Below, in pieces: positions 11,201 through 32,929 of a stretch of DNA of 64,000 bases. The position numbers were made by a program, and so were the translations under genes. Position 1 is the first letter of the stretch. Every line of letters begins with the position of its first letter. The notes under the pieces were generated by a model. That model was given only the letters and a program-made list of their open reading frames with translations. It had not been told where the DNA came from and did no database searches. The stretch comes from Candidatus Obscuribacteraceae bacterium (GTDB taxonomy: Bacteria; Cyanobacteriota; Vampirovibrionia; Obscuribacterales; Obscuribacteraceae): the NCBI GenBank assembly GCA_044226015.1, contig JBGAHS010000001.1, forward strand, positions 768,001 to 832,000, in the 5' to 3' direction.

Positions 11201-14200
11201 GTAGTTTGCAGGCTGAAGGTTCCACCCGGCGAGCCCGAATTTAGAAGGACGATGTTGCCCGCATTGCTTATGAAAACACTGCCATTTCCCGAAGTGCTGG
11301 CAGATAGCGTCTGTGACGAGGTTGAAATTGGAATCTTGGCGCTACCGATATTTTCGTCTTCGCTAAGCAAAATTGCTGTGGAACTGAGGATTGTTCCTGT
11401 GACGCGCACGATGTCTGCAGACCCAAAACTCGTTTTGTTGCCTGTATTTGATGCTGTTAGTGAGCTGCTTCCTGTTCCGCTGGTGCCAATGTTTGCTTTG
11501 ATGGTGATGTCTCGAGGAATGTCAGGTAAGACCGTGGCATCGTTAAACGTATTGATGCTTACGTTTTGCGCTGTGATTGCACCGGCTATAATGAGCGGAC
11601 CGTTTGCATTTATGCTCACGTCTTTGACGCTCGATGCCTTGACCGTGAGTGCGTAGCCAAACAGCGTAGATACAGAATTGGCGTTTGGCGCCCATCCTAT
11701 ATATGCATCGCCGGCCGTGTTGAGAGCCAAATTTATTGCGCTGGTCTGAAGCGGCGAACTCTTTGAACCTAAATCACCCGTGCCAGTCTTCAGGGTGACG
11801 TTCAGTCCCTCGATGACTCCCGGAATTGGTCCGGGAGGGTCAATCGTAGTTATAGTTCCGGTGCCCGCTGCGTTCAGATTCACCTGTCCAGAACTGGTGC
11901 CGCCTAAGCGACTGGAAACGATGATATTCCCATCGTTTTGGGTTTGGATATCGATGACAGGTCCACTCTGGAGTAACTGTGCGACGGTAACATCTCCATC
12001 ATTCACAAGTTTGTATGTGCCAGAAAATGCGAGAGAATTGAGAACTTTCAGATTGCCCGAGTTGGTTGCAAACGCTGAAACTGGAGAAATCATTCCCAGT
12101 CCTTGTGCTGTTGTACGTATAGGTAGCGCTGCCGAACCAATGTTGCCTGTTGATGAGTTCAATGAAAGGAAGACGTCACCACCAAGAATTCTAAAAACAC
12201 CAGCGGTTTGAGAAATTGAAGCAGCTGCTATTTTTATGTTGTTTCCAGCCGAGCTGAGGCTTCCCACCTGTGCAGCCAGTACGATGTTCTTTGGAGTTTC
12301 AAGCTCTACTCGTGGGGAAATTATGCCTCCGCCTTTTGCAATCGTTATGTCGCCTGTATTGAATAACTTAAACAGGTCTCCACTTCCGGAGGCATCTACA
12401 GCCAGCGTGCCCGAATTGTTGATGTTGACCAATGCACCGTTAGTGGTGACCGACAGCTGGGATGTTGAAGTACTGACAGGGCTAGCCAGTGAACCAATGT
12501 CTCCAGAGGCAGCGTTCAGGATAATGCTTTTGCCAATTATTTTTCCGGCTGATTGGCTTATGTTGCCATTACCACTTACAGTTAACTGCACAGACGCTCC
12601 TGCTTTTCCGATGTTGGCTCCGAGGGAAATATTGGCAGTTGCTGAGCTTGTCTTTATGCTTACTTGGGGCGAACTTAGAGGACCTGTCGTAGTTATGCTG
12701 TTGAGTGAGTCAATTTCAAATTTACCAGAGGGGGCGTTTGACGTTCCGATGAAACTGTCGCTAGCAGACTTATTTGTCAGTTTGATTGCCCCAGTTCCTG
12801 AAGTCGAGGCGACCATTGTGCCACCAGAATTGACCGCATAGTTTAGTGTAATATTGCCAGCATTTGAGTTAAAGCTCACGTTGTTGCCAGTCACCGTACC
12901 GTTGTGCACCGCTCCCAGAAAACCTATGCCCGATGCGGTTCCTGTCGTGTTAAGCGTGACGTTGCCTGTCGAGCTTATGTCGTTGACAATCAATCCAAAC
13001 TCTGAGGCGACTTTCGAAGGTGTTGAGCCCGCCGTTAGCATTACATCACCAGATGCTTTTATATCGCTGAATAATGCAGTACCACCTGTTTTTGTCGTGA
13101 AGCTGCCTCCAACATCACTGTTTGCATTTATTTGGATTCCATTTTTTGAATAGGTTCCAGGAAGAAATGCGCCACTGGTGATTGCTCCATCAACGATGCT
13201 AACGCCTGTGCCAACCAGGGGTGTAGCGGCGTGCACTTCGGCGTTGCCGCTAGGCAGGCTGCCAGCTCCGTTGGCATTGATGCCACCAATTGTAATGGCA
13301 TTGGAGTTGCTTGAGCTACCGTTTGCGATAATCAATATGTTTCCGTTTTTGCCGGCAGCAGCTCCACTGGTGTCAATGCTAAGACTATTGGGCAAGTTGA
13401 TGCTGCCGGAATTGGTAGCGGAGCCCTTAAACGCGATGAGCTTAATATCTCCACCGGATGCCCCAGCAAATGTGCTCGCTGAACTCAACTGTGTCACATC
13501 CTTATTGTTAGTTACGTTGAGGTCAATCTTGCCTCCAGTTGTAGAGCCTCCGGTAATTTTAAGCGTAGTTGCTGCGTCCGCTTTGCCCGGATATGCTGAT
13601 GATGTTGCAGGGTCAATTAAAGTGAAGTTGGCTCCAGCTACAAGGGTAATCGCCCCTCCATTTGTTGTGCTCGAGCTGGTGTTGATAGTCAGGTTGTCAC
13701 CATTTGCGGTGATATCTCCTTTTGCAATAATTGCTAGCGATTCGCCTGAAAAATTGAATGGGCTTGTGAAATCTATGTTGCCGAATTGGTTGTAGAAGCT
13801 TGGGTCGCCACTTATGTTTAGCTCACCAAGATTGAGACTTGCTGTTTTCGTAGCTATATGAACTTCACCGGCATGAACGTTTACCACACCGGTTAAATCA
13901 TGTACGTTGATACCCGCGAGACCGTCTCCGGAATTAACGTTCAACGTATCGCAGAGTATATTACCGCCAGTCAATGAGAAGTCTGATTTAGCGTTGAACA
14001 AAGTATCGCGGATGTTTATCAACAAGGCTTGCAAGGTACCGTTAACATTGTTGATGGAAATGCTGCCGCTGTTCAATGATGAGATATTGATGTTACCAGT
14101 TGCTGCTGTGATTAAGTTGCTATTCGTGAGCGTATTGCTGATCACGTTCAGGTTATTACTAGCTTGCAGAACCCCAGTGTTTATAATTGAGTCCCCTGCT

Positions 14201-14841
14201 GTTAGCGTCAAATTTCCAGCACTTCGAATGACTCCCGCATTCATGATGTTATGTACGGCACTTAAATTGAGACTCAAATGCGGATTTATGATTAGTCCGT
14301 TGAGTAATGAAGCGGGCACCATTGTGGAAAGTAGGCCGCCAGTGTTGTTGAAGATATTCTGGGCAGCAACATTTGCCGTCACTGAGTGGGCATCATTTGA
14401 ATAAAAGAAAATGCGACCGGAATTGCTCAGCGTGCCACTGATATTCAAGCTGCTCTGCGCTATGTTTTGAAGTGCCGTGACGCCTCGTGGAACGACCAGT
14501 CCTTCCATGTTATTAGCAATGTTGTCAATTCGGAAGGTGCCACCGCGTGCGGTGCCGAGGGCGTTCAGCAACAAGGTCTGCGCACCGCCAGCTGACACCT
14601 GATTCAAAGCCAATTGTTCTGCGTCAGTTAGAAGGTCTCCCGGTGCTATAGCCTTTACACCAGTTCCAACTTTGATAGTGCCTGCTATTGCTGCCACATT
14701 ATCTCTAGTTCGAGATGAGAGGTCGGTAGTAGGGTCTGCCCAAGTGGGTGCAATGCTTGAGCTCAAGCAAAGTCCTAAGCCCGAAGACAGCACCCTTTCT
14801 CTGATTTTTGCTTCGCGAACTTTTTTGTTTCCAGGACGCAT
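8212..14841 (-). CDS. Giant secreted filamentous-haemagglutinin-like protein, paralog of 151..7995
   Basis: Track ORF 8212..14892; ATG at 14841 (MRPGNKK...) preferred because a basic stretch and signal-like segment follow. Repeated 'GxIGxxxxP(I/V)xT' strand motifs; shared N-module and C-terminal domain. Confidence 0.8.
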   Translation of the reverse strand: MRPGNKKVREAKIRERVLSSGLGLCLSSSIAPTWADPTTDLSSRTRDNVAAIAGTIKVGTGVKAIAPGDLLTDAEQLALNQVSAGGAQTLLLNALGTARGGTFRIDNIANNMEGLVVPRGVTALQNIAQSSLNISGTLSNSGRIFFYSNDAHSVTANVAAQNIFNNTGGLLSTMVPASLLNGLIINPHLSLNLSAVHNIMNAGVIRSAGNLTLTAGDSIINTGVLQASNNLNVISNTLTNSNLITAATGNINISSLNSGSISINNVNGTLQALLINIRDTLFNAKSDFSLTGGNILCDTLNVNSGDGLAGINVHDLTGVVNVHAGEVHIATKTASLNLGELNISGDPSFYNQFGNIDFTSPFNFSGESLAIIAKGDITANGDNLTINTSSSTTNGGAITLVAGANFTLIDPATSSAYPGKADAATTLKITGGSTTGGKIDLNVTNNKDVTQLSSASTFAGASGGDIKLIAFKGSATNSGSINLPNSLSIDTSGAAAGKNGNILIIANGSSSNSNAITIGGINANGAGSLPSGNAEVHAATPLVGTGVSIVDGAITSGAFLPGTYSKNGIQINANSDVGGSFTTKTGGTALFSDIKASGDVMLTAGSTPSKVASEFGLIVNDISSTGNVTLNTTGTASGIGFLGAVHNGTVTGNNVSFNSNAGNITLNYAVNSGGTMVASTSGTGAIKLTNKSASDSFIGTSNAPSGKFEIDSLNSITTTGPLSSPQVSIKTSSATANISLGANIGKAGASVQLTVSGNGNISQSAGKIIGKSIILNAASGDIGSLASPVSTSTSQLSVTTNGALVNINNSGTLAVDASGSGDLFKLFNTGDITIAKGGGIISPRVELETPKNIVLAAQVGSLSSAGNNIKIAAASISQTAGVFRILGGDVFLSLNSSTGNIGSAALPIRTTAQGLGMISPVSAFATNSGNLKVLNSLAFSGTYKLVNDGDVTVAQLLQSGPVIDIQTQNDGNIIVSSRLGGTSSGQVNLNAAGTGTITTIDPPGPIPGVIEGLNVTLKTGTGDLGSKSSPLQTSAINLALNTAGDAYIGWAPNANSVSTLFGYALTVKASSVKDVSINANGPLIIAGAITAQNVSINTFNDATVLPDIPRDITIKANIGTSGTGSSSLTASNTGNKTSFGSADIVRVTGTILSSTAILLSEDENIGSAKIPISTSSQTLSASTSGNGSVFISNAGNIVLLNSGSPGGTFSLQTTGTVSDPGDISLSTPITAVKDLLLQTKGNNASINLNGNSINADNITLTAFGAGKITDLSGTATLSASKTINLLSTNGNIGSNTSRLQIGSGTVLAKTAAAVFLNLKNSATISDSAAGTQFDLTSDASADISIAGSISSPNIQISANGNIVASTNSKHTLAATIALSLMSQNGNIGSGASPVLTKAKAITVVSTNGSAYIRNTGKLTLNTSSSDNASNDSWLSIQNVGSTNIAGKLSSDSVVNISSTSTLTQSNNSVAITAPTVSLSSAVSPALISAANFGTAQARIQVDASNLTIDTKGIVFINNVGSTGNLNTNAFSGNGFDITSGAGNITVNGAITSPVVSITASGNVIIAANTGKIGGKTNISATNISRVSSATVIGATVLLSTGSGDIGAIGSNNDLLLDASNLIIKQNGGSAFIVDILPGTINVSPDKTSISAEFVLTNNGNIVVKAPLQATVALTLNSGSGALSTSGNGLLQASILNLGGAGQTGNLGSELAAIKISANVVSAKTDKGSVNLLNSGSSALSVNGSQSGQSFKIANNTGQLSIDGAITVGQAGDLAKRTNNLTLLETGSNGAISLNADLNVTGGSVLINALDLGGKIVFADGVSTNTMVDLKSPITNGVIKIAIGKPPTAPSNPLSSNGNFTVNNTAPGVVFGGVNPNALLATGAKVQAITLNAKGRNIIFNSASSGSIQFGDNVTVTADPPGANALINNDRTLAVTNKSETRTEYMLPEKVSHIEFTDSASAIEAHTNTTQSLLTPSTANQEAINKSYTLSTGTKSEAASLAGNIVCNTTFTAPGKLLTVNMITPANEAAEQDLANKRSLLKLNYGATLFNPSKDLTVLTAFGELRIRAGAAVLTMLQDSGALSIFNLHDRNLGEVRFDASGQQICIPIGQHLTVAAGQILELSQVNAIDCIAHRNIRRESNNRMTIFSSEFSILSALSGLTQLRNSKAPAHRVLMMKCLKNAASIFQMSNNKQGPYRQVTKTEMYMAMH

Positions 14842-15031
14842 GATGTCACCAAAGGGGCAGGAGGATTGAGCCCTACAAAGCGTCATCCTCAATACCTACG
14901 AATTATAGTTGAGCTGTCATGAGCCCAACTGCAAAGGTGCTTATTGTTAATAAATTGCAGACTTTTCGTCTAAGGTGCCAGGCGAACTTCTGCAAAAGTA
15001 TGAATTCAGAAAGATGGGACAGGCTTCGTAA

Positions 15032-20208: not shown

Positions 20209-22125
20209 TTATAAATCTGGGCTCAATTCTTTCAAGTCTTTTTCCCTGCCAATTTTCACTGCGATTTCTCGCATGTCTTCAAGTATCATTCGCTCGGTAG
20301 AGAGGTCTGAATGATTCGTTTCGCGCAAATGTGATTTTATATACTCATAGTCCTCGCTAGCCTTCTCGGGCTGCTTCAAAGCTACCAGTATGACAGCCCG
20401 CACAACCCGGACATAAAGGTAGGAGGGGTCGTAGTCTTTATCGTAGTGATGGTAATTTGAAATAGCTTTATCAATGTGTGTAAGTGCCTTTTCTAAGTCG
20501 CCATATTTTAGTTCAGCTGAGGCCAGCGTCGTAAGGGCCGAGGTTCCCAGGTATGTGGCTAGATCTTTTCGTTCCTGGCTAATCTCGAAGCTTTCCGTTG
20601 CTGTTTTGATTGCGTTTTTGAAATCACCAGATTGAGCCTGTGCGCTAGCAAGAGCATTGAGTGTAATGACCCGTAAGCCACGTATTTCCATGCTGGAACT
20701 TGGTGTGGACTCTGTTAGCAATAGGGCTTCTTTTAAGGTTTCTTTAGCAGACTTCGCATCTTTTAGTGAATTTTGTGCACTTGCTTGCGAGCAAATCAGG
20801 GCAATGTACATAGTGCTTCTCTTGTCGTTATTTGCACGACAGAGGTCGATCGCTTTTTGAATATTCGTCAGGCTGGTTTCGTAATCAGCCTTTCTTGCGA
20901 AAAGGTCCGCTAAATATTTGTGAGCACTACAAATTTGCTGCCATTTGTTGGTGGTGTTGTTTCGTTTCATCCACGATTGTATTAGCGAGATAGCGTCATC
21001 TATTCGTCCCGCGTTTGCTAGTTTAGTTGCCTGATTGTTAGTAGCCTCCAGGCTCAACGGGCGCAGCGGAGTGCTCAGGGATACTTTCTGATTCGATTCA
21101 GTCACTACCTCGAGAGCGGCCATTCGCTGTTTGACGATGATGGCTGCACATACTCCAACCACTGTCATTCCAATTAGCATTGTCCACAAATAGAATGTAC
21201 CGAACAAATCCTTTCCTGTTTTTTGTTCGGGTGGCAGCGCGAAATGCATGCCAGATTTTGTCGATGCGTCGCGCAGGCGCACAAGCTCTTCACGCAATTG
21301 CGTCGCTGTTTCCGTTCTTTTATCGGGGTCTTCCTCTGTTGCTTTTGCGATTAGTGAGCTTAGTGGTTCGGTAACTTTACCGTCTATGGCAACAGACTCA
21401 AACAGAGATACGCCTAACGCATAAATATCCGCACGCGCGTCCGCCTCGCGTCCAAGATATTGTTCAGGGCTTATATATTTTCTGGTACCTAGAATTTCGC
21501 CTTGTTGGGTGAGTTTCTGATGAGCCGCATCATCTTCGAGATTTAATTTCGACATTCCGAAGTCAACTACTTTAACGTTTGAGTTGAGGTCACCACTATT
21601 TAGAATCAGTATGTTTCCGGGCTTTATGTCTCTGTGTATCACATTTCTGGAATGAGCATGTTCGAGTGCCGCTGCTACCTGACAGAAAATGCTAACTGCT
21701 CGTTCGGGGGTGAGGACCTTCTCTTTAGCTAGAACTTCGGCAAGGTCTTGCCCTTCCAGGTATTCCTGTGCCATGTAGGGCACACCCTGTGCAGTCACTG
21801 CAAATGAATAAACTTTGGCGATATTTTCCTGTTCGAGGTGTGCTACTGAAATTGCTTCGCGCCGAAATCGCTGCAAGTCTATCAACTCAGATGATTTTAG
21901 GATTTTTAGCGCTAATATTCGGTTTAGCTCTTTGTGTCTCGCTTTATAAACACGGCTCATTCCACCCATACCGATAAAATCGAGAATCTCGTATTTGTCA
22001 TCAAATATGGTGCCAATTCTGGAGTCTCTTTCGCTTAGCCTGACCCTGTCAAATGGGCATTCCTGTACATCATTCGCAAACTGACGGTGGCAAACGATGC
22101 AAATTTTTCCAGGTGAGGTCGACAT
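20209..22125 (-). CDS. Hanks-type Ser/Thr kinase: N-terminal Cys knuckle, one TM helix, C-terminal TPR region
   Basis: GMGGMSRVY, ALK, HRDIKPGN, DFG, YISPEQ, DIYALG; TM segment LWTMLIGMTVVGVCAAIIV; TPR-like helices. Confidence 0.92.
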   Translation of the reverse strand: MSTSPGKICIVCHRQFANDVQECPFDRVRLSERDSRIGTIFDDKYEILDFIGMGGMSRVYKARHKELNRILALKILKSSELIDLQRFRREAISVAHLEQENIAKVYSFAVTAQGVPYMAQEYLEGQDLAEVLAKEKVLTPERAVSIFCQVAAALEHAHSRNVIHRDIKPGNILILNSGDLNSNVKVVDFGMSKLNLEDDAAHQKLTQQGEILGTRKYISPEQYLGREADARADIYALGVSLFESVAIDGKVTEPLSSLIAKATEEDPDKRTETATQLREELVRLRDASTKSGMHFALPPEQKTGKDLFGTFYLWTMLIGMTVVGVCAAIIVKQRMAALEVVTESNQKVSLSTPLRPLSLEATNNQATKLANAGRIDDAISLIQSWMKRNNTTNKWQQICSAHKYLADLFARKADYETSLTNIQKAIDLCRANNDKRSTMYIALICSQASAQNSLKDAKSAKETLKEALLLTESTPSSSMEIRGLRVITLNALASAQAQSGDFKNAIKTATESFEISQERKDLATYLGTSALTTLASAELKYGDLEKALTHIDKAISNYHHYDKDYDPSYLYVRVVRAVILVALKQPEKASEDYEYIKSHLRETNHSDLSTERMILEDMREIAVKIGREKDLKELSPDL

Positions 22126-24101
22126 CAGCTTCTATTCCATTCGTTTTGGCTGATGTTCTTCACCGAGCTAATCATCCAGCGCCCTTTTTTGCGAATGAGC
22201 TGAAATGCAAAATGACCAGTTCCACCTTTGCTGAAATATGCCATGTCCACCAGTGTTTTAGCACTGTCCTTTGACACTTTGATAACCTTGGTGGCATTTC
22301 CAGGAGCAATTTCTGAATCGGGGTTGTGATTTGATAATTTGAATCCGCGCTTGAATTCTTCAAAGTTGTTCTTTCTCAAACTCGAAGCCGGGTCAATGTT
22401 GTCGTAAGCTGCTTCCCATTGTCGTCGTCCTAATTGCCCGTAGTGTCGTCTCACCACGGAATCGGCATCTTTTACTATGGGGTCTACCACACCTGTGAAA
22501 TCGGCTGAGTCCAGCTCTAAACCGTTAATGCCCTGGTGATAAGTGAAGTTCCAGAGCGCTCCGTTCAAGAGCCCTTCAGGATTGCTGATTTTTACTGCTT
22601 CGTTATTATAAATTCCAAGCTTCAGCGTCTTGCCTTCTACGTTCAATTCGCATTCCGCATTATCACCATGGCGATCGTAATAATAGAGAACCCCATTCAC
22701 AGTGTGTTGTGGCGGGGCTTCCTTTTTTGATGGCATCAAAACTGCTGTTGCTGTGCAAATGAGGATAAGAGCTGCAGCAGCGAATCCCCAAAGTGCCATT
22801 CTGGCGCTATGACTTGTAATTCTGCTGATTTGAGAAACTTGTTCTTGTGATGAGTCCTTATCGGGACGAGCAGATTTTGTTTCCAAACCAGCGAACGTGT
22901 CAGCCTTGGGCGAGTCGGCTTGTTTCAACTCAGCATCTGACTCAATTGTTTTTTGTTTTGATTCAGAAATTACAACTGTGCTTTCGTCGGGTTTTTGTAC
23001 TTTTTTCTTTTGCTCAGCTTTGTTGCCGTTAGAAAGCACAGGCTTCTCCAGCTTTTGACTTGCGTCTGCAGCCCGGGTCTGAGGAGTTCCTTTTGATTGA
23101 CCCTGTCCGCCACCTTTATTCTCTAGCTGCAGAAATGCAGTCAATGCTGCGTTCAACTCACCCATTGATTGGAAGCGTTTCTGCGGGTCCTTTTCCAGGC
23201 AACGCATTACGATTGCTTCCATTTCTTTTCTTATGGTTTTGTTTTGCACCACATCTTTTAGTGCCGGCGGTTTCTCCTTTATTTGCATGCTGAGAACCTG
23301 CATTAGGTCCTCGGCTTCAAATGGAAGTTTGCCGGAGAGTGCTTCAAACATGCATACGCCAGCGGCATAAATGTCTGAACGCTGGTCAATTTTTAAGCCA
23401 CGAGATTGCTCGGGGCTCATGTAGTCCGGCGTGCCAAGGCATTCTCCTGTCCTGGTGATTTTTTCTTTTGAGTCGCCGCGAGCATTGAAAGCTTTTGCTA
23501 ATCCAAAATCCAGTACCTTGATATGCGGTCCGCGAGAGGTTGAACTTATGAAAATGTTCGTCGGCTTCAAGTCTCGGTGCAGAATTCCCATTCCGTGCGC
23601 ATGTTGCAGTGCATCACAAACTTGAGCAAAAATCTTGGCACATGCCCTTTCGTTGAGCTGCCCATTCAACTCAAGAAATTCCTGGAGACTGGCTCCCTCA
23701 AGATATTCCATCACCAGGTAAAGGTCACCGTTTTCGGTCACCCCAAAATCGTAAATCGTTATGATGTTTGGATGATTGAGCAGGCTTGCGCTCTTAGCCT
23801 CTTGCTCGAACCTCTTCCACATCGAAGGGTCGTAGGTCAAAACCTCGGCAATGCATTTAATTGCCACTGGGCGGTCTAATGCGACATGCTTTCCTCGATA
23901 GATAACACCCATGCCGCCGCGGGTGAGTACTTCTTGAACTTCATATTTCCCGGCGATTCGCGTGCCTACCATTCGGTCTGGGCGGCGGGAGATAAGTGGT
24001 CCGCCATCGTATGGGCAGACGGGGTGATCACCCGTAACCTCGCGCTGGCAGAGGACGCAAATCTGCGTCTTGCAAGGGGTTTCTTGTTCCGGGGTGGACA
24101 T
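22125..24101 (-). CDS. Hanks-type Ser/Thr kinase: N-terminal Cys knuckle, one TM helix, extracytoplasmic domain
   Basis: RGGMGVIY, VAIK, HRDLKPTN, DFG, GTPDYMSPEQ, DIYAAG. Start uncertain (24101 or track 24170). TGATG overlap with the next kinase. Confidence 0.92.
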   Translation of the reverse strand: MSTPEQETPCKTQICVLCQREVTGDHPVCPYDGGPLISRRPDRMVGTRIAGKYEVQEVLTRGGMGVIYRGKHVALDRPVAIKCIAEVLTYDPSMWKRFEQEAKSASLLNHPNIITIYDFGVTENGDLYLVMEYLEGASLQEFLELNGQLNERACAKIFAQVCDALQHAHGMGILHRDLKPTNIFISSTSRGPHIKVLDFGLAKAFNARGDSKEKITRTGECLGTPDYMSPEQSRGLKIDQRSDIYAAGVCMFEALSGKLPFEAEDLMQVLSMQIKEKPPALKDVVQNKTIRKEMEAIVMRCLEKDPQKRFQSMGELNAALTAFLQLENKGGGQGQSKGTPQTRAADASQKLEKPVLSNGNKAEQKKKVQKPDESTVVISESKQKTIESDAELKQADSPKADTFAGLETKSARPDKDSSQEQVSQISRITSHSARMALWGFAAAALILICTATAVLMPSKKEAPPQHTVNGVLYYYDRHGDNAECELNVEGKTLKLGIYNNEAVKISNPEGLLNGALWNFTYHQGINGLELDSADFTGVVDPIVKDADSVVRRHYGQLGRRQWEAAYDNIDPASSLRKNNFEEFKRGFKLSNHNPDSEIAPGNATKVIKVSKDSAKTLVDMAYFSKGGTGHFAFQLIRKKGRWMISSVKNISQNEWNRS

Positions 24102-24238
24102 AAATGCGTCAGGACTCCCATTTGGGGAGAATTTGTATGGATGTATTTTACCGCAATTAACTACTCCCAAGTCAGCTTACCCCCGGCAGCTCTTAATTAG
24201 CCGGATTCAGACCTTTGAAATCCAGCTATAGCGGTGTT

Positions 24239-27200
24239 TTATTTTTCGATATTTGAACCTGTTGAAGCCTGTTTTAACGGAAGCTTTACAATGAGTGCAT
24301 TCATTTCCTCTCTGTCTCTGTGGTATTCGAGGCTGCCTCCATGGGCGCTTATGACCCGATATGAGAGCACTGGGGAGAGTATCGAAAGGTGCAAAGAGCT
24401 AATTACAGAGTGATTTGCAGTTTTTCGTCTTAATAGATTGCTAATTAGATTGGCACTGGCTTGTCTATCAAATAGTCCGCTAATCTCCTCCTCTGTGAAT
24501 TGCTCCCCATTGTCTTTAATACACCAGAGCACATGTTCCGTCGTGTATTCAGCGCTCACTTGTACCGTTGCACCTGCAGGAAGCCTGGCTGCGCTGAGAG
24601 TTATGAGATTTGAAACTGCCTGAACTATTCGCTCAAACTCAAGAAAAAGAGTTATTTCATCTAAGGCTTCACGCAGGTCAATTTCAACCTCATACTGACG
24701 CGACTGGGCAATCTCACAGGACTTTTCCAGGCACTCTGCGGAAGATACTTCTGAGCGAACGAATGTCATTTTGCCAGACTCTATTTTTTCCAGGTCGAGC
24801 AGGTCGTTTATCAATTCAATCAATACTTCGCTCTGATAAATAATGTCTTCGAGCAGGGGTCTTGCATTCGCGCCGACGGGACCTGTGGCACCTTCATGAA
24901 TTAGCGCTGCTGTGCCAGTCATCGATGTTAAAGGGCTGCGAAGGTCATGGCTTACAACTGCAAGAAATTCTTCTTTCAATTGCTCTAGTTCTTTTCTTGC
25001 AGTGATATCATGTGCGATGCAATACAGGTAGTTTTGCTCACTTGTTCGGGAAAGAGAGACTAGCATGTATGCCATTTTTCCATCGCTGGAGCGGATCTTA
25101 ATCTCGCGATTCTCCGCTGAACTTAGCTCTGAACTCAAAAATCGAGTGAAGATATCGCTATCATCTTTTTCGACAAAATTGAAGATTGATTGATTTCTCA
25201 AATCATCTTTATTGCACGATAAAATATCTTCTGCTGCCGGGTTGGAACTGAGGAATCTTCCTTGATTGTCCAGTATGCAAATCAAATCTCTAGAATTGTC
25301 TAAAATTGCGCGTTCTTTCTTTCGCGCCGCAGCCAACTTTTCTGCTGTGTCGTGAAACGCCTTATCTAATTTTGATATTTCGTCGCTACCTTCTACCACC
25401 GGATTTAGCGGCAGCTCTCTTGCGACTCTAGATGCATTATCGGCTTGTATAGCAAGCCGTGAAGTGATATCTCTGCTGAAAAATCTTGCCAGAAACAATG
25501 ACAGCAAGAGATTGAAGAGTAATCCCGAGTTCAATGCTATTCCCTGCAGCTCGCGCAATTGATTTTGCTTTTGCGGGTTGATGAATTCGCGTCGCTCGGC
25601 TTCATCAATTAGTTTTCCTACTCTCTTGGAGATGCCCGTCGAAGTTGCCCAGAGTTCATACCTGTCTGGCTTATATCGCCCAATGTTGTTCTTCGTGTAA
25701 CCATTCTCTTCTAGAGCCCGTCGTGAGGCTTCGATGTGACTCACCATTCGGTCATGGAGTTTTTCGGCTGCCCCGAAAAGTTCTGCTTCTTTCGCGTCAT
25801 GCCTGACGAGTCTTTTCAATTTGTTGCCAGAGTCGATCAAGTGTTCATTTAGTTTGTCATACTCAAACCATTGCTTCTTCGTCTTAATATGTATCACTGT
25901 CACGCAGTTGGTGAAGTAGGCGTCGAGCAGCCTGTATGCGGTTTGTGCAATCTGTCTTTGTCTCGATTCCTCGACTCTGCTCTTTTGTGTTTGAATCAAT
26001 AGAGTAGTTATGCTCACCACGAAAATGAGTTCGAAAAGAATTGGAACCCCGATTAATAAAGCACCTTTTTGAAACAAGGACAGCTTTGAACCTGCTGACT
26101 TAGTCGTCTGCGATATGACAGGGAAAGCCTGGCTTCGCGCTGTTGCAGCTGATTCTGCCTTTGCTTTGACTATAAGCTTTTGTTGATTCTCCCAATTGGA
26201 AAAAATCGCTTCATTCTTTGGCAACGTAAATACGAATTCGCTGCCAACGCCCTCTTTGCTTTCTACATAGATTTTGCCACCGCTCGATTCAATTATGTCT
26301 TTGCAAATTGGCAGCCCAAGCCCGGTGCCAGCTTTTGCTTTGCCATCTCGCGCGTCAACTTGTTTGAACTTCTCGAATACGGACATTCTGTGTTCTTCTG
26401 GTATACCGCGACCTTTATCGAGCACGGACACTCGTATATATTCCTCTTCTTCCTCTCTGGCAATTAGAGTTACGCAGCTGTCTTGAGGAGAGAACTTGAT
26501 GGAGTTAGAACCCAGGTTTACTAGCACTTGAATAATCTTGTTAGGGTCAGCGTAGCAAGTCGTTGCATCGCATTCGATTTCGAACTTTATTTTTGACTTT
26601 TGAGCCATGCCTTCAAGGTCAGCGATTGCTCTTTCGAGAATTGGTTTAAGCGCAACTATTTGTCGGTTTGCAGATTGTTGTTCTGTTTCGGAGTCAGTTA
26701 ATTCAAGAAGCTCGTTTACCAGAGATAACAATCGTGCGCCGTTGCTTTTGATTGACTCTAGCCTGCTGATTGCTTTGCTACTCAGTTCGTTTTGCAGCGA
26801 CCCTACAAGGGTTTCCACATTTGAGGAAATTCTAAAAAGCGGTTCTCTCAAATCAGAACTCATCATCGAAATGAATGCGTGTTTGTTATGCTCAAGTTGT
26901 TTTCGCTCAGTTATGTCATGCACTACGCAGTAAAGTACATTCTCCTCTTCGGCAAAATAAATTGACCACAGCGTTTCTATCTTCTTTCCGCTGGGTCCAT
27001 AAACGCTACTTTCGATGTCTTGTTGTTCGTTTGTTTCTCGGGCTCGGCGAAATTTTGATAGAGCAGATTCTATTTCTTCCTTGTTCTCACCAAGAATTTG
27101 TGATACTGAATGTAGTAGCAGTTCGTCTTCTGCATATCCCCATACCCTGAGGCATGCTGGGTTGATCTTGCAGAACTTAAGGTCTGCATCAAGTACGCAG

Positions 27201-28051
27201 ATAACGTCGTTCGCACTTTCCAGGAGCAAGCGCTCTCTGTCCGCTGCATCTTTGAGGCTCTGATGCATTTTGTGAAAGGACTGGTCGAGTTGCGCTATTT
27301 CGTCGGCACCTCCAATCTGAGGCAACAACTCGTATCCCTCAGCAAGTCGAAGTGTATTGCTCATAATTGACTTGAGCCTGCTCGTGATGCTTGTGCGGTA
27401 GAAATATACGAGAGCAAGCCCAGCAAGAACATTCACTGTGAGTCCGACCGCAAGTATCTGGAATTGCAAATTTTGCAAGGTGGCGCTTCTTTTACGGCTA
27501 TCTTCAGCCATCTGTTCTTGCATTTGAGTGACTATAGACATGCGTTGCATAGTCACTTCTCGCTTTTGACCGAATTTGTCTTGTATTCTGTGTAAATCAG
27601 CCGCAATTCCGAAGAGGCTAGTTCCATGCCTAGCCGGTGCTATTACCTCATCTAGGATGGGTGAGAGATCGTCGATGCTTGTTATGAGTTGTTCGGCGGC
27701 TTGTTCAGCTTCTCGATTTCCTTGAGAACAGGCCCTGAGCGCCCTTTTTCTGTCCTCCATGCCTGTTCTGTCCTGGTCGAACAGTTTGATGAAAAACTGA
27801 GGGTCGCCCTGGTACGCTGCAAAAGCAGCAATGACAGCTTCGTTTGCTAATTGCATCAGCTTTGCCGAATGTGCTGATGCTTGCCTGAATCTATTCTCGC
27901 GAACGCTTTCTCTGTCAGACTCTGCTAGCAACAGGGCTAGTGAAACAATCAAGGTAATTTCAATTATTAGCGGGGCGGCGACAAGAATGAGCCCCTTGTG
28001 GAAAACTTGGAGCCCCATTGTTTTCTTAGGTATGTTGGCGACACTGCTCAT
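24239..28051 (-). CDS. Tandem double sensor histidine kinase: 2x (TM-sensor-TM-HAMP-PAS-HisKA-HATPase)
   Basis: Internal duplication (LQVFHKGLILVAAPL / LSLFQKGALLIGVPI; ITSRL..DEI; DVICVLD / DLICILD; HDITERKQLE / HDITARKELE); H-box, N, G1, F and G2 boxes are distributed across the two halves. Confidence 0.92.
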   Translation of the reverse strand: MSSVANIPKKTMGLQVFHKGLILVAAPLIIEITLIVSLALLLAESDRESVRENRFRQASAHSAKLMQLANEAVIAAFAAYQGDPQFFIKLFDQDRTGMEDRKRALRACSQGNREAEQAAEQLITSIDDLSPILDEVIAPARHGTSLFGIAADLHRIQDKFGQKREVTMQRMSIVTQMQEQMAEDSRKRSATLQNLQFQILAVGLTVNVLAGLALVYFYRTSITSRLKSIMSNTLRLAEGYELLPQIGGADEIAQLDQSFHKMHQSLKDAADRERLLLESANDVICVLDADLKFCKINPACLRVWGYAEDELLLHSVSQILGENKEEIESALSKFRRARETNEQQDIESSVYGPSGKKIETLWSIYFAEEENVLYCVVHDITERKQLEHNKHAFISMMSSDLREPLFRISSNVETLVGSLQNELSSKAISRLESIKSNGARLLSLVNELLELTDSETEQQSANRQIVALKPILERAIADLEGMAQKSKIKFEIECDATTCYADPNKIIQVLVNLGSNSIKFSPQDSCVTLIAREEEEEYIRVSVLDKGRGIPEEHRMSVFEKFKQVDARDGKAKAGTGLGLPICKDIIESSGGKIYVESKEGVGSEFVFTLPKNEAIFSNWENQQKLIVKAKAESAATARSQAFPVISQTTKSAGSKLSLFQKGALLIGVPILFELIFVVSITTLLIQTQKSRVEESRQRQIAQTAYRLLDAYFTNCVTVIHIKTKKQWFEYDKLNEHLIDSGNKLKRLVRHDAKEAELFGAAEKLHDRMVSHIEASRRALEENGYTKNNIGRYKPDRYELWATSTGISKRVGKLIDEAERREFINPQKQNQLRELQGIALNSGLLFNLLLSLFLARFFSRDITSRLAIQADNASRVARELPLNPVVEGSDEISKLDKAFHDTAEKLAAARKKERAILDNSRDLICILDNQGRFLSSNPAAEDILSCNKDDLRNQSIFNFVEKDDSDIFTRFLSSELSSAENREIKIRSSDGKMAYMLVSLSRTSEQNYLYCIAHDITARKELEQLKEEFLAVVSHDLRSPLTSMTGTAALIHEGATGPVGANARPLLEDIIYQSEVLIELINDLLDLEKIESGKMTFVRSEVSSAECLEKSCEIAQSRQYEVEIDLREALDEITLFLEFERIVQAVSNLITLSAARLPAGATVQVSAEYTTEHVLWCIKDNGEQFTEEEISGLFDRQASANLISNLLRRKTANHSVISSLHLSILSPVLSYRVISAHGGSLEYHRDREEMNALIVKLPLKQASTGSNIEK

Positions 28052-28068: not shown

Positions 28069-28476
28069 TTATTTTAGATGAAGCGAGACCCCTACTAATT
28101 CAGGATACCCAGTTGTGACATCAAGTACTCGCTCAAACTTCCATTCTTTGCTGAAGTCGTGCACCACAATTTCGCATGTTGTGTAAACCAGATTGCCTGG
28201 CATCAAGTGCCCACCGAGTGTTTCACCGGTTGAGTTGGAAAACGAAGCATGAATATGCAAGCCAGATTTTCCAAGCGTGCCAGTGGCTGATACGATTTCG
28301 AGCGGACCCTTGATTGTGCTGGCTTCTGGCTGATCGGCAAAACGAAGACTTCCCGTTTTTAGCGAACCGACAAGACTGAGAACAACGCCTGCATCAATGT
28401 GCTGTTCGGCTACAAGCGCTTTCAGTTCGTTGTAAACGTCTTGGTCTGGTTTCAAGCGTTTTACTAGAATCGGCAT
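28069..28476 (-). CDS. PPC/DUF296 domain protein
   Basis: RLKPDQD, VGSL, EIVSATGTL, HIHAS, GGHL and TCEIV motifs. Confidence 0.88.
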   Translation of the reverse strand: MPILVKRLKPDQDVYNELKALVAEQHIDAGVVLSLVGSLKTGSLRFADQPEASTIKGPLEIVSATGTLGKSGLHIHASFSNSTGETLGGHLMPGNLVYTTCEIVVHDFSKEWKFERVLDVTTGYPELVGVSLHLK

Positions 28477-28477
28477 G

Positions 28478-29806
28478 CTAAAACTTTGGCTTTCCTGTTT
28501 TCAGCCATTCTCTGAAAGACGGTGCTTCGGTACTGCTTTGTTCGCTGGAAGATTCTTTCTTAGCGAGAAACTCGGCAAGCATTCTGTTGTACTGGGAGAT
28601 GTCCGACTCGCTGAACTTGTGTGCTGGAGGCGTGACCGCTTTGTTGGGATCGATCGTATTGCCGCCTGCTGACTCGGTTGTTCCAGCTGTTGCCGATGTT
28701 TCAGTGCCAGTCTCGGCATTCATTTTTTCAATTTCTGGAATAACTGGTATTGAGAGAACCTGGCGCTCGCTGAGTTCCCGAATAGCCGGTCTGCTGGTGT
28801 TTACAGGAGGCTGTTCTGCGCTTCCAAGATTAACTGGTCTTTGTGAGGATTCTTTTGTATCAGTGCTTGTGGACGGATCAGCCTTCTCTTTCGCGTCTTT
28901 ATTTTCTTGCACCGTGGGCGATACCGACTGCATAATTAGTTCTTTCGCTCTGGCAAAATGTTGAGAATCTGGCGGCACTTGATTCAGAAACTCTGTGCCT
29001 TTCTGTACGTCGCCAGCCTCTAATGCCTTTTCTCCCAACCTGAAAGCAGCTTCGCTAAACAGTGTCTCCTGTTGTTTGAAGTCTTCGGTTTTTCCCTGTG
29101 AGCGCAGCTCATTGAGTTTGTCGTAGACACCCTGATAGTTGTTTTTTGTGGCGTCATCTTTGACTTTCTCAATGATGGCACTCGCTGATACTACTGCCTT
29201 AGCATTTTTCTTTGCATCAACGTCTTTGTACATTTTATAGCCAACGAAAGAAAAAATGAGTCCGAAACCAACGATCGCGATAACGACGGCATTATTGACG
29301 AGGACCATGCCTGAGCCACCACGGTGACCCAGATCATTTTCAATAGGCTTGTCTTTACCGAATAGTGGCGAATGTAATTTTGTTTCTTCCTGGCTTTCAG
29401 GCGCTGCACCGCATGTGGTGTCAACTGTTGCACATATTGCTGTCTCAGATTCGACAGCTTGAACAGAAGAGTTGCTCTCCAGATCTGCGCTCTTGCAGCA
29501 GTTCTGGCTTAACGCTGTTTCAGCTTTGCTTTCATCAAGTGCTTCATCGCTGACAGCTTCTGACAGGTCTAGCTGATAATTAGAAAAATCATAGGTTTCG
29601 TTCTGAAGGCTATTGACCCGATAATCAGCTGTGCCTGCAGCGCTGCTTGGGTCTTCTAGTGCCGGCCAGTCAAAGTCAGACATGCCTTGTCCCACAGCGC
29701 TTTGCGCTGACTCGGGGCGCTTCTGCGTCAAGCCACATTCCTGACAGAAAGTATCTTTAACCGCTACTTCTGAGCCACATCTACGGCAGACTAATGTAAC
29801 TGGCAC
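28478..29806 (-). CDS. Zinc-ribbon-containing single-pass membrane protein
   Basis: CRRCG...FCQECG at the N-terminus, acidic linker, one TM helix, helical C-terminal part. GTG at 29806 has a GGAG RBS (track start 29851). Confidence 0.7.
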   Translation of the reverse strand: MPVTLVCRRCGSEVAVKDTFCQECGLTQKRPESAQSAVGQGMSDFDWPALEDPSSAAGTADYRVNSLQNETYDFSNYQLDLSEAVSDEALDESKAETALSQNCCKSADLESNSSVQAVESETAICATVDTTCGAAPESQEETKLHSPLFGKDKPIENDLGHRGGSGMVLVNNAVVIAIVGFGLIFSFVGYKMYKDVDAKKNAKAVVSASAIIEKVKDDATKNNYQGVYDKLNELRSQGKTEDFKQQETLFSEAAFRLGEKALEAGDVQKGTEFLNQVPPDSQHFARAKELIMQSVSPTVQENKDAKEKADPSTSTDTKESSQRPVNLGSAEQPPVNTSRPAIRELSERQVLSIPVIPEIEKMNAETGTETSATAGTTESAGGNTIDPNKAVTPPAHKFSESDISQYNRMLAEFLAKKESSSEQSSTEAPSFREWLKTGKPKF

Positions 29807-30035
29807 CGTTGTTCTCCCGCAAAACCAAATCTCTACTGCGTTATCGCTCATAGCTTTTCGGCATCTTCGCCGCCAGCATGAGTCTAGAAGAGAATAGCGA
29901 ATTCCTTCCTGCTTGTCAGCCCATCTTTTTCTAACTCAGAGCGGGTTTTATTTGTTTACACGCCTTCCTGTAACACAAGGTTGTTCGGATGCTAAGATTT
30001 GAAGCGTCGCATAGATTTTGGACCAGGGAAACAGT

Positions 30036-30426: not shown

Positions 30427-30490
30427 CCATTCTCGCCGCGATAGCCCACGCCTATGATGCTCGTACGGTTGGTTGCCGTGGGAGAGTCAT

Positions 30491-31699
30491 ATGGAAAATT
30501 CCAGGGATCAAATCCCTGTCTTAAAACCTGGGGAAAAGTTTGCGGAGCCAAACGAGCCTCAGTCTGAGTTAGAGCCTTCAGTTAGAAAATTGTACCTGGA
30601 TAGCCTGCCGAAGACTGTCCAGATTAGAGCAGACAACGCCACCGGAAGCGGTTTTTTCATGGACAAAGATGGAAGAATCGGAACGGCGGCTCACGTTATT
30701 CTTGGTTCAAGAGAGCAGTTTGCAATCACTAGCGATGGTACGAAGTACAAGTTGCAGATCGAAAAAATTGATGATCTGAACGACATCGCAATTATGAAGC
30801 CGCTTGGTTATAAATCGGGTTCCTACCCTGTAGCAGAGATGGGTGACTCGACTTCCATAAAAAAGGGAACTGAATTCTTTCCGATGGGGCATCCTCAGGG
30901 ACGACGCCCTGCGTATATCTCTCCAGGTGAATTTGGCTCCGAAATGAAGAATTCCCAGCTCTTGCTGGATTTCCATCAGATGACTCAAGAAGAGCTGGAC
31001 GAGCGAATCGGTGAAGCCATAACTCCGAAGGAAACGCCTTTCATGAAATCAGCTCTCGAGCGTGATCTATTGAATGGAGTTGTTCATATTCGTCCGGGTG
31101 ATTCGGGCGGACCAGCCTTTGATGCAAACGGCAAAGTAATTGGCATCAATGACATGATCACCTCGTTCGAGAACGGGTACTTTGTTCCGGTAGAGAAAAT
31201 TCGCGCTCTATATGAGCAGAAGAATACTGACTTTGAAATAAGCTATCATCGTTCGCCAACCGCCTGGGCAGAGTCATATCAAAATCAATGGACTCAGAAG
31301 CCGATTGCGGCAGCGACTGAAACTGCGACTTTTGCTGGAGCCGCTTATCTAGGTAGCAGGGTCATTGGAGCTTCGCCACGCATGGGAAGTCTTGCTGTTG
31401 GGCTGGGCGAAGGAATGATGCTCTACAGCGATGCGGGTCAACTCATGCGCAGCACCGACGGAAGAGACCAGCTCAAATATACTCTTGCAAGCGCAGCGGA
31501 TGCGTCTGGATTGTTAGGCAGTGCTGCATTTCTGACTCGAATGCGAACAGGCGGTGCAATTGGCATCGGAGTTGGCATACTCGGACGCATAGCGGCAGAT
31601 TTTATTCCGACTCGCATGGTTATGACAGATCTGGTACGTAAGTCAGACCCTACGATGCCGCCTTTTACACAAGACATTGAGAAAAATCTGGGACTTTAA
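30491..31699 (+). CDS. Trypsin-like (S1) serine protease with C-terminal hydrophobic Gly/Ala-rich helices; catalytic triad intact
   Basis: GSGFF, TAAHV, DIAI, PGDSGGP; no signal peptide; GGAG RBS before ATG 30491. Confidence 0.88.
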   Translation: MENSRDQIPVLKPGEKFAEPNEPQSELEPSVRKLYLDSLPKTVQIRADNATGSGFFMDKDGRIGTAAHVILGSREQFAITSDGTKYKLQIEKIDDLNDIAIMKPLGYKSGSYPVAEMGDSTSIKKGTEFFPMGHPQGRRPAYISPGEFGSEMKNSQLLLDFHQMTQEELDERIGEAITPKETPFMKSALERDLLNGVVHIRPGDSGGPAFDANGKVIGINDMITSFENGYFVPVEKIRALYEQKNTDFEISYHRSPTAWAESYQNQWTQKPIAAATETATFAGAAYLGSRVIGASPRMGSLAVGLGEGMMLYSDAGQLMRSTDGRDQLKYTLASAADASGLLGSAAFLTRMRTGGAIGIGVGILGRIAADFIPTRMVMTDLVRKSDPTMPPFTQDIEKNLGL

Positions 31700-31714
31700 T
31701 GCGGGTAATCAAAA

Positions 31715-32929
31715 GTGAGTGATTTAAATATTCCAGTGCTGAAACTTGAAGTTCCAATCGGTAATCCGAATGAACCGCAGCCAAAAGTCGATGAAGCTTC
31801 TAGTAAGCTGTATATGGACTCTCAGGATAGCGTCTTGAGAATACAAGCCGGCAACAAACATGCCAGTGGTTTTCTTATTGATGACAAACAGCACATAGTA
31901 AGCTCTGCACATAACATCATAGGCTCAAAAGAGCAGTTTGCTGTTGATCGTCAGGGCAACCGCTATAAGCTTGAAATCGAGAAACTCGACGACCTCGCTG
32001 ATATAGCCATTCTCAAAGTCAAGTCAGGCGAAGTCAAAAATGGGAAACCTCTTGAAGTAGGCAGCGTTGAGTCGTTGAATCCCGATGATAAAGTTGTAGC
32101 ACTGTCATATCCTGCTGAGCTTGACTCGAAAAATCCTTATCTCTCAACTGGTTATGTTAGAGGTGTAGAGGTTCCGATGGAATTGCTCACCCACATTGAC
32201 CCTTCGGTTCCAGAAGTCATTGGGAAGAACATGCAGAGCATACATAATCGAGAAATTCTTGAGGAGGCAAGATCATTCTTCATGCAGCCTCTGCTGGCTA
32301 CCAAGCTTCACATTGAAGCTGGCGGTGGGGGTGCGCCGGTTCTAGACAAGGATGGCAAAGCCGTTGGCTTTGTTGCTATGAGCGATGTAAGTCACGCTGT
32401 AAGCGGAGAGACGCTGGTAGCTCCAGCCGAGTACATAAAAGGTCTTAAATCAGATAGTTCGAAATTTGAATTCAAATATTCCGCGCATGCTGCGCCCTGG
32501 GCAGAAAGATATCTTTCTGATTGGCGAGATGATAAAACTGCAGCGTTGACAAACACTGCTATGGTAGCGGGCGCCGGCTTCTTGGGCTACTATGCTGGAA
32601 TGCGCTACCCAACGGTAGCTACCGCTTTGCTGGGTGGCTATGGAATTACTAGATTAGGTGCGGATCTTAGCCGTTTGATGCAAGCTACCGATTCAGCAGA
32701 TACGACAAAATACGGCTTGGCCGCAGCTAGCGACCTCGGCACCATTGGCGGTGCTGCGATGACTCTGGTTCCTCGTCTCAAGCCTTATGGGCTGGCGCTG
32801 GCTGGAGCAAGTTTACTTGGACATGCTGCTACAGATTTCGTGCAGAATCGCTGGGTGCTTGATTCAACTACAAGGTTGCAGGGCGATCCAAAAAGACCTC
32901 CATTCATGATGGATAATTTCTTGCGCTAA
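31715..32929 (+). CDS. Trypsin-like protease paralog lacking the catalytic Ser (pseudoprotease)
   Basis: ASGFL, SSAHN and DIAIL retained, but IEAGGGGAP replaces IRPGDSGGP; colinear with the upstream gene over its full length. Confidence 0.85.
   Translation: MSDLNIPVLKLEVPIGNPNEPQPKVDEASSKLYMDSQDSVLRIQAGNKHASGFLIDDKQHIVSSAHNIIGSKEQFAVDRQGNRYKLEIEKLDDLADIAILKVKSGEVKNGKPLEVGSVESLNPDDKVVALSYPAELDSKNPYLSTGYVRGVEVPMELLTHIDPSVPEVIGKNMQSIHNREILEEARSFFMQPLLATKLHIEAGGGGAPVLDKDGKAVGFVAMSDVSHAVSGETLVAPAEYIKGLKSDSSKFEFKYSAHAAPWAERYLSDWRDDKTAALTNTAMVAGAGFLGYYAGMRYPTVATALLGGYGITRLGADLSRLMQATDSADTTKYGLAAASDLGTIGGAAMTLVPRLKPYGLALAGASLLGHAATDFVQNRWVLDSTTRLQGDPKRPPFMMDNFLR

Follow-up and report, generated by a model that had tools for sequence, protein, structure and literature searches.

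Histidine kinases are textbook homodimers, and engineered mixed dimers are the usual means of probing whether their half-of-sites asymmetry has a function and whether a second site is required. Complementation pairs of EnvZ and single-chain EnvZ, both laboratory constructs, are pseudo-symmetric and contain one live and one dead composite site; in other enzyme families, one live and one dead site are found in ABC transporters with one degenerate site and in C1/C2 of mammalian adenylyl cyclase. Here, we analyzed a 64,000-nucleotide stretch of DNA (the window) from a Candidatus Obscuribacteraceae bacterium (GCA_044226015.1, contig JBGAHS010000001.1, positions 768,001 to 832,000), which encodes a tandem double histidine kinase of 1270 amino acids (aa) at 24239..28051 on the minus strand, as defined by open reading frame (ORF) calling and Pfam.

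The closest precedent is the FasB/FasC pair of Streptococcus pyogenes, two sensor kinases that heterodimerize; in the authors' model, as far as it is set out in PMC12675982, the FasB kinase domain phosphorylates H246 of FasC, the FasC kinase domain is dispensable, and a cis site in FasB is not excluded. While the complementary division of ATP site and phospho-acceptor His is common to both systems, FasBC is described as two genes for proteins with six transmembrane (TM) helices each and a known regulator, FasA, whereas the tandem kinase is a single ORF whose donor half has lost its His, and the split is found repeatedly in either polarity. ATP-binding and phospho-acceptor functions likewise reside on separate partners in the split CheA3/CheA4 of Rhodobacter sphaeroides, which are active only together (PMC3591291), and in Hik36/Hik43 (PMC7656254). 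As portrayed in these sources, however, split CheA systems are CheA-type, with an HPt acceptor and a transient encounter, whereas the tandem kinase comprises two complete HisKA modules with one putative shared four-helix bundle; neither an HPt (P1) nor a CheW-like P5 domain was found among the 12 Pfam families matched.

Domains and fold of the two modules are those described for CpxA, a trans-acting HisKA homodimer with an asymmetric active state in which one CA domain is mobile and one sequestered (PMC3904827), and for HK853 (PMC7005713). In contrast to these classical homodimers, the asymmetry of the tandem kinase is fixed in its sequence, with one His and one ATP site per pair. Furthermore, the histidine pseudokinases DivL and PsmA (PMC12963549) have a His-less DHp like that of module 1, and RetS-GacS is a heterodimer of sensor kinases; as described, both are regulatory or inhibitory and come without a built-in complementary partner. 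Proteins of the DivL/PsmA type have no phosphorylatable His anywhere, whereas the tandem kinase retains His1035 with Asp at +1 and Ser at +4. Phosphotransferases of the ChpT/Spo0B type are homodimers of a His-bearing DHp with a dead CA and receive phosphate from a receiver domain; module 2 alone fits this anatomy, but the helix-2 erosion described below argues against a homodimer. Judged by its sequence, the tandem kinase belongs to neither the FasBC nor the split CheA group and is one chain of two full HisKA modules. The working principle is already known from FasB/FasC; what is new is the single-chain, sequence-fixed complementary HisKA form. Literature searches of limited reach, with subscription journals outside their range and FasBC itself missed, returned nothing on a single-chain complementary HisKA kinase or on Obscuribacterales histidine kinases.

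Reciprocal lesions in two fused kinase modules

Pfam assigned two stretches each of HisKA, HATPase_c and PAS to the 1270-aa ORF, and a hydropathy scan predicted four TM helices (22-40, 199-217, 663-681 and 837-855). The anatomy of a class I kinase, i.e., HisKA and HATPase_c behind a sensor, TM helices and HAMP/PAS, is present twice, which bears out the two fused sensor-HAMP-PAS-DHp-CA modules read from the DNA in an earlier note; the two halves are 27% identical over 563 aligned residues. In DHp1 (26687..26902, minus strand like all parts of the gene), the H-box FISMMSSDLREPL at nt 26875-26837 has Ser399 (nt 26857-26855) at the His position, encoded by TCT, which is two changes away from CAT, with Glu at +4, N437 and R440 kept in helix 2 and Asp453 at +54. 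The adjoining CA1 (26213..26548) carries the motifs NLGSNSIKF, DKGRGIP and GTGLGL. In DHp2 (24773..24976), the H-box VVSHDLRSPLTS at nt 24958-24923 retains the phospho-acceptor His1035 (nt 24949-24947) together with D1036, R1038, S1039 and K1089, and CA2 (24266..24640) reads NLITLSAAR and DNGEQF at the corresponding motifs. The ATP site was scored over seven residues (the two N-box Asn, D/G/G of the G1 box and two Gly of the G2 box), of which CA1 keeps 7/7 (N512, N516, D545, G547, G549, G577 and G579) and CA2 3/7, the second, Mg-binding N-box Asn being gone from the latter. A phospho-acceptor His and intact N, G1 and G2 boxes occur together in neither module. The earlier note had claimed a His-to-Ser exchange next to a canonical CA in module 1 and a canonical H-box next to an eroded CA in module 2, and both claims agree with these residues.

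Within the same genome, 85 kinase-core ORFs were detected, 17 of them with two DHp domains. Of the 17, 11 share the polarity of the studied gene, the residue in place of His varying among them, and one is intact in both modules. The remaining five lack the first CA; four of these have a His in module 1 only, and one retains a His in its degenerate second H-box. Since 11 of the 12 two-core kinases of the genome have the same polarity with different substitutions, the complementary lesions are not due to chance; together with the 87 divergent proteins described below, this upholds the earlier view that reciprocal loss is hard to explain by random decay. Moreover, an overlapping two-gene pair in this genome (C8:205401-208467) consists of a His-less gene with an intact CA, followed by a His-bearing gene with a partly eroded CA.

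A census of tandem relatives extended these findings. We call a protein forward if its module 1 is His-less with an intact ATP site and its module 2 has a His and a dead ATP site, and reversed if it is the mirror image. The first set of 109 non-redundant tandems contained 67 forward, 19 reversed (14 with CA1 deleted), 19 intact and 4 partial proteins. A search with a single-kinase-core profile over 1.84 billion representatives, which favors intact proteins because multi-core proteins rank first, added 142 proteins, 39 of which have the sensor of the tandem family (23 intact, 12 forward, 3 reversed and 1 partial). The pooled set, to which a stricter sensor filter was applied that dropped several CA-deleted reversed proteins of the first set, comprises 143 non-redundant tandems: 87 forward, 15 reversed, 37 intact and 4 partial. 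In no set was there a tandem with a module devoid of His and ATP site alike, nor one left without any His or any ATP site. Every one of the 102 complementary proteins combines a 7/7 ATP site in its His-less half with D/E at +1 and T/S/N at +4 in its His half, and in 14 reversed relatives of the first set the CA of the His half is altogether absent. At the level of sequence, these 102 proteins take the catalytic domain from one partner and the His from the other, with a dispensable CA on the His side, as in FasBC. The pattern proposed in the earlier note is thus conserved among tandem homologs (87 of 143 forward), and the lesion patterns are not random.

The same division was found in unfused complementary gene pairs in eight places (G000, L071, L072, L073, L075, L058, L077 and L144), with the gene order reversed in L058; overlapping or abutting pairs occur in both gene orders. 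In the seven scored pairs, the His partner has the lower-scoring CA (median 94 vs 157 bits), although the seven scored residues of this CA are all still present in L071 and L075. Among the first 20 loci checked for unfused PAS-type half-kinases, only intact kinases were found. Intact single kinases of this family that lie side by side in twos or fours, and may represent fusion precursors, were noted in L003 (G076), L020, L076, L081 and L082. Apparent intermediates were also seen: P0045, P0048 and L181:4708-8415 have a His in both modules and have lost the +4 residue from module 1, with CA2 dead in the first two and still intact in the third.

The proposed composite site and competing explanations

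The 102 complementary proteins also differ between their halves in helix 2 of DHp. K/R at His+54 is found in 97 His halves and 9 His-less halves, Arg at +41 in 17 and 91, and N/S at +38 in 38 and 96, respectively; the +4 residue is kept in 22 of the 102 His-less halves. Among ordinary single kinases of the family, 102/103 carry K/R+54 and 92/103 carry R+41. Forward, reversed and unfused proteins all show the helix-2 split, although R+41 is weak among non-PAS forward proteins (4/14 donors). In an alignment to HK853, +54 corresponds to R314, and +38/+41 to Q298/H301, which adjoin V294 and D297, two positions that the title of PDB 4JAS names as rewired interface residues. According to published accounts, R314 helps to hold the sulfate that mimics phospho-His260 (PMC7005713), hairpin handedness settles cis versus trans phosphorylation, and Glu249 of CpxA acts together with Asn356 of its CA domain (both PMC3904827, PMC6798134). 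The reciprocal erosion of helix 2 therefore points to one composite site made of both halves. Helix 2 of its own module appears to face the surviving His from one side, and helix 2 and CA of the partner module from the opposite side; the residue-loss pattern, as read from these alignments, is what a trans kinase would leave.

Our preferred reading, to which we assign a probability of roughly 0.68, is an in-chain pseudo-heterodimer with one working, trans-acting site, in which CA1 would phosphorylate His1035; that DHp1 pairs with DHp2, within or between chains, seems highly probable. The two modules would pair in register from the sensor through DHp, and CA1 would bind Mg-ATP and phosphorylate His1035 across the bundle in trans geometry, with N512 engaging D1036 in the manner of CpxA Asn356 and Glu249. 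The composite site round His1035 would consist of helix 1 and K1089 from module 2 and of N437/R440 and CA1 from module 1. From phospho-His1035, the phosphate would move to a response regulator encoded elsewhere, S1039 would retain a phosphatase ability at the single site, and CA2 would be a structural passenger, probably fixed in a docked, inactive position.

The residues that CA2 has kept are consistent with such a passenger. Counted over 49 forward PAS-type proteins, the ATP-site residues are lost (the second N-box Asn is retained in 3, and the final Gly of G1 and of G2 in 0 and 1, respectively), whereas structural residues persist: D, R and Q opening the N-box helix in 46, 49 and 44, the first F-box Phe in 46 and the G2 Leu in 46. 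AlphaFold2 (AF2) predicts the full Bergerat pattern in CA2, while its conservation is the lowest among the domains (30% mean identity over the 11 closest homologs, the set used for all mean identities given here). Leu419 of CpxA is described as anchoring the CA on the bundle (PMC3904827), and we read the retained G2 Leu of CA2 as its probable match by motif position. Since structural residues are selectively kept and ATP-site residues lost, CA2 is likely a structural, permanently docked domain; structural CA domains of this kind can vanish altogether, as the reversed relatives show.

As for the pairing itself, the stalks are in register, with 181 vs 180 aa from TM to H-box in the PAS type and 66 vs 65 aa in proteins with no PAS. 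The AF2 model of residues 1-1200 has a mean predicted local distance difference test score (pLDDT) of 84.9 and a predicted template modeling score (pTM) of 0.58. Halves that do not pair were calculated to yield a pTM of 0.50 if the internal error is 5 A, and would reach 0.586 only with no error at all, so that a value of 0.58 would require near-zero error over 640 residues; the halves are therefore probably packed together in this model. The structure prediction that the earlier note had called for thereby lends the in-chain pairing indirect support. Foldseek and VIA searches with the first AF2 model returned ordinary HisKA/HATPase/PAS matches, which have no bearing on in-chain pairing. The linker from CA1 to TM3 (26066..26212, ~49 aa), poorly conserved at 17% mean identity, has a median length of 57 aa in PAS-type vs 37 aa in non-PAS proteins; this greater length was rejected as evidence for in-chain pairing, as the chain returns to the membrane in any model.

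It should be noted that several observations weigh against an in-chain pseudo-heterodimer. The sequence fits pairing within and between chains alike and cannot tell the two apart, and AF2 would tend to pair similar kinase modules in one chain by their likeness to homodimers. The first AF2 model, of residues 191-1267, had a pTM of 0.52, which is not diagnostic. Covariation analysis by mutual information with average product correction (MI-APC) over 79 sequences (effective number, Meff, 68) gave no signal between the halves: among the 200 best inter-half pairs, 10 were in register vs ~8 expected, and the top pairs were artifacts of invariant columns. The tandem relatives cannot be counted as independent samples, and the census would miss any wholly dead module that had been deleted. 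In the cis-acting HK853, R314 is, we assume, supplied by the other subunit. Finally, the locus yielded no partner response regulator; a receiver-domain profile matched 116 ORFs across the genome and none within the window.

The same chemistry and composite DHp1:DHp2 site could also be formed between chains, with module 1 of one molecule joined to module 2 of the next, as swapped dimers or membrane-embedded strings. This arrangement accords with the residue-level evidence just as well, the unfused complementary pairs show that a tether is not needed, and linker length varies from 43 to 127 aa among PAS-type proteins. We nevertheless consider it unlikely, because the tether would favor the in-chain partner by local concentration and the pTM of 0.58 suggests that one chain can close on itself. 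The earlier proposal that CA1 acts only on His2 in a DHp1-DHp2 pseudo-heterodimer is supported by conservation, mirror-image versions, unfused pairs, CA-deleted forms and helix-2 erosion, and its within-chain part indirectly.

An arrangement as two separate homodimers, with module 1 as a DivL-like pseudokinase and module 2 as a ChpT/Spo0B-like phosphotransferase or phosphatase, would leave the protein devoid of autokinase activity. Each half alone does resemble these types, and the best structural matches of module 1 include DivL. However, in a homodimer the His half would have to provide both flanking helix-2 faces by itself, yet R+41 is lost from it and kept by the His-less half; moreover, DHp1 lacks the +4 and other helix-1 residues, and all 102 complementary proteins have an intact ATP site in their His-less half. 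These features render separate homodimers improbable. Even less can be said for a decaying duplicate or an assembly artifact, for which CA2 as the least conserved domain and the relatives L167 and L174, split into two frames between the modules, might be cited. The gene is unbroken and free of indels in contigs of two of four sequencing runs, both of them possible sources of this DNA (the remaining two runs cover only fragments of it), and it is syntenic in four genus relatives. Together with the polarity shared by 87 divergent proteins and the selective retention of structural residues in the dead CA2, the conservation data refute this explanation, and we regard its probability as negligible.

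Range and evolutionary origin

The tandem kinase family was found in 8/8 genomes of the genus, and those close homologs that are named belong to Candidatus Obscuribacterales. In 151 genomes of the class, with five candidates scored each, stop-free matches across both modules were confined to six genomes of the own family, including the genome studied here (G000). No matches at 1e-75 were obtained in 250 other genomes drawn from the phylum, with three candidates scored per genome. The other 103 of the 142 proteins added by the core-profile search are two-core kinases of a different type, in which a receiver domain mostly separates the cores; named examples come from Omnitrophota and Nanoarchaeota. 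None of the 103 has the complementary pattern in this search, which is biased towards intact proteins. A different two-core family of ~880-900 aa (P0161, P0185, P0192, P0230 and P0257), without the tandem-family sensor, has a second core that lacks the first N-box Asn, and keeps both His.

Phylogenetic trees were midpoint-rooted quick searches without bootstrap, and branch support is given as the Shimodaira-Hasegawa-like approximate likelihood ratio test (SH-aLRT). In a CA-only tree of 85 rows, the forward PAS proteins, apart from one long-branched member, cluster with module 1 of intact PAS tandems (SH-aLRT 95), and the reversed class groups with the intact P0109 (SH-aLRT 95). A single clade of all 34 His-less halves was rejected on CA domains by the approximately unbiased test (p-AU 2.5e-7). 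In a tree of the lesion-free sensor/HAMP/PAS sequence, the reversed PAS-type P0136 is nested among intact PAS tandems. Within a well-supported non-PAS clade of 14, the forward L087 is sister to the intact P0130 and the reversed P0157 to the intact L089 (SH-aLRT 99 each). An initial whole-core FastTree analysis had grouped many His-less halves, probably by long-branch attraction, and was replaced by these trees. From the placements among intact relatives it follows, on the evidence of these phylogenies, that the complementary split evolved repeatedly, in both directions, from intact tandem kinases. A likely history would be duplication, obligate pairing of two intact kinases and subsequent loss, on one side or the other, of a second site that had become redundant.

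On balance, though by a narrow preference, we lean towards regarding the protein as a natural single-chain kinase with one composite site, the end-point of a repeated path from an intact tandem via one-way reciprocal loss to deletion of the ATP domain. On this account, the trans geometry and the make-up of the site would be readable from residue losses, and the two sensor halves would form an asymmetric receptor beyond the reach of homodimeric kinases.

Two-DHp kinases of other designs were also noted. A family of ~850 aa, with four members in this genome (C10:374995-377559, C8:228042-230612, C8:604429-606969 and C12:264098-266764) besides P0095-P0108, combines a module 1 consisting of a His-bearing DHp without any ATP domain with a module 2 whose DHp is usually His-less and whose CA is intact. 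Furthermore, C6:370708-375222 encodes a 1504-aa protein with a long repetitive N-terminus and no predicted TM helix, in which two adjacent DHp domains (the first with a His, the second without) precede one CA; it appears as a soluble version of the same design and is adjoined by a receiver protein.

Sensors, genomic context and implications

Module 1 opens with TM1, a periplasmic sensor and TM2 (aa 22-217; 27401..27988), followed by HAMP1 and PAS1 (aa ~219-383; 26903..27397), and module 2 with TM3, sensor 2 and TM4 (aa 663-855; 25487..26065), followed by HAMP2 and PAS2 (aa ~859-1021; 24989..25477); TM helices are from hydropathy, and HAMP and PAS from Pfam and AF2. Both sensors are predicted by AF2 to be four-helix bundles, and sensor 1 resembles the 4HB_MCP_1, CHASE3 and TarH clusters, while neither sensor on its own has a Pfam match. 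The two sensors have diverged from each other and are equally conserved, at 43% mean identity each, compared with 30% for CA2 and 17% for the linker, and both therefore matter. The earlier note had suggested a composite two-domain sensor, possibly an AND gate, in which the two would bind different signals that are both needed for the output of the pseudo-heterodimer. Their equal conservation and divergence would fit this, but in the class of four-helix-bundle sensors that includes Tar and NarX the ligand is bound at the dimer interface, and the conservation is accounted for equally well by a single asymmetric site or a single structural partner. Moreover, the membrane region of FasB is reported as dispensable in FasBC (PMC12675982). 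Nothing points to two ligands for the two sensors, which could form one composite binding site; the AND gate is thus unsupported, and we regard it as a doubtful addition.

The gene is preceded by co-oriented genes for a PCC/DUF296 protein and a weak zinc-ribbon/TPR protein (28069..29851, minus strand), and synteny in four genus relatives comprises the zinc-ribbon/TPR gene, the PCC gene and one or two tandem kinases. Downstream lie two co-oriented Ser/Thr kinases (20209..24170, minus strand), the first of which also follows the tandem kinase gene(s) in three genus relatives; it has no match in L167, the fourth of the four syntenic relatives. A Ser/Thr kinase query matched 157 ORFs in the genome. 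In two relatives (L167:5586-9306 and L174:4637-8892), the reading frame is split in two between the modules, representing either a true fission or an assembly error. Promoter and terminator scans yielded sites no more numerous than in shuffles. Elsewhere in the window, two paralogous ORFs with trypsin-like serine-protease motifs recognized by eye (30473-32929, plus strand) are syntenic with the tandem kinase in genus relatives, and a 2226-aa ORF with beta-rich repeats (8212-14892, minus strand) encodes what we take to resemble a large secreted filamentous protein.

With 17 of the 85 detected kinase ORFs of the genome, two-DHp proteins are a major part of signaling in this lineage. In the tandem family, evolution appears to have produced the mixed dimer again and again, in either direction and within a single chain, and intact relatives exist beside it. 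This constitutes a natural series for testing the rules of cis and trans phosphorylation, one-site signaling and the passage of signals through asymmetric HAMP/PAS stalks, and a single-chain kinase with separately editable halves would be a useful chassis for receptor engineering.

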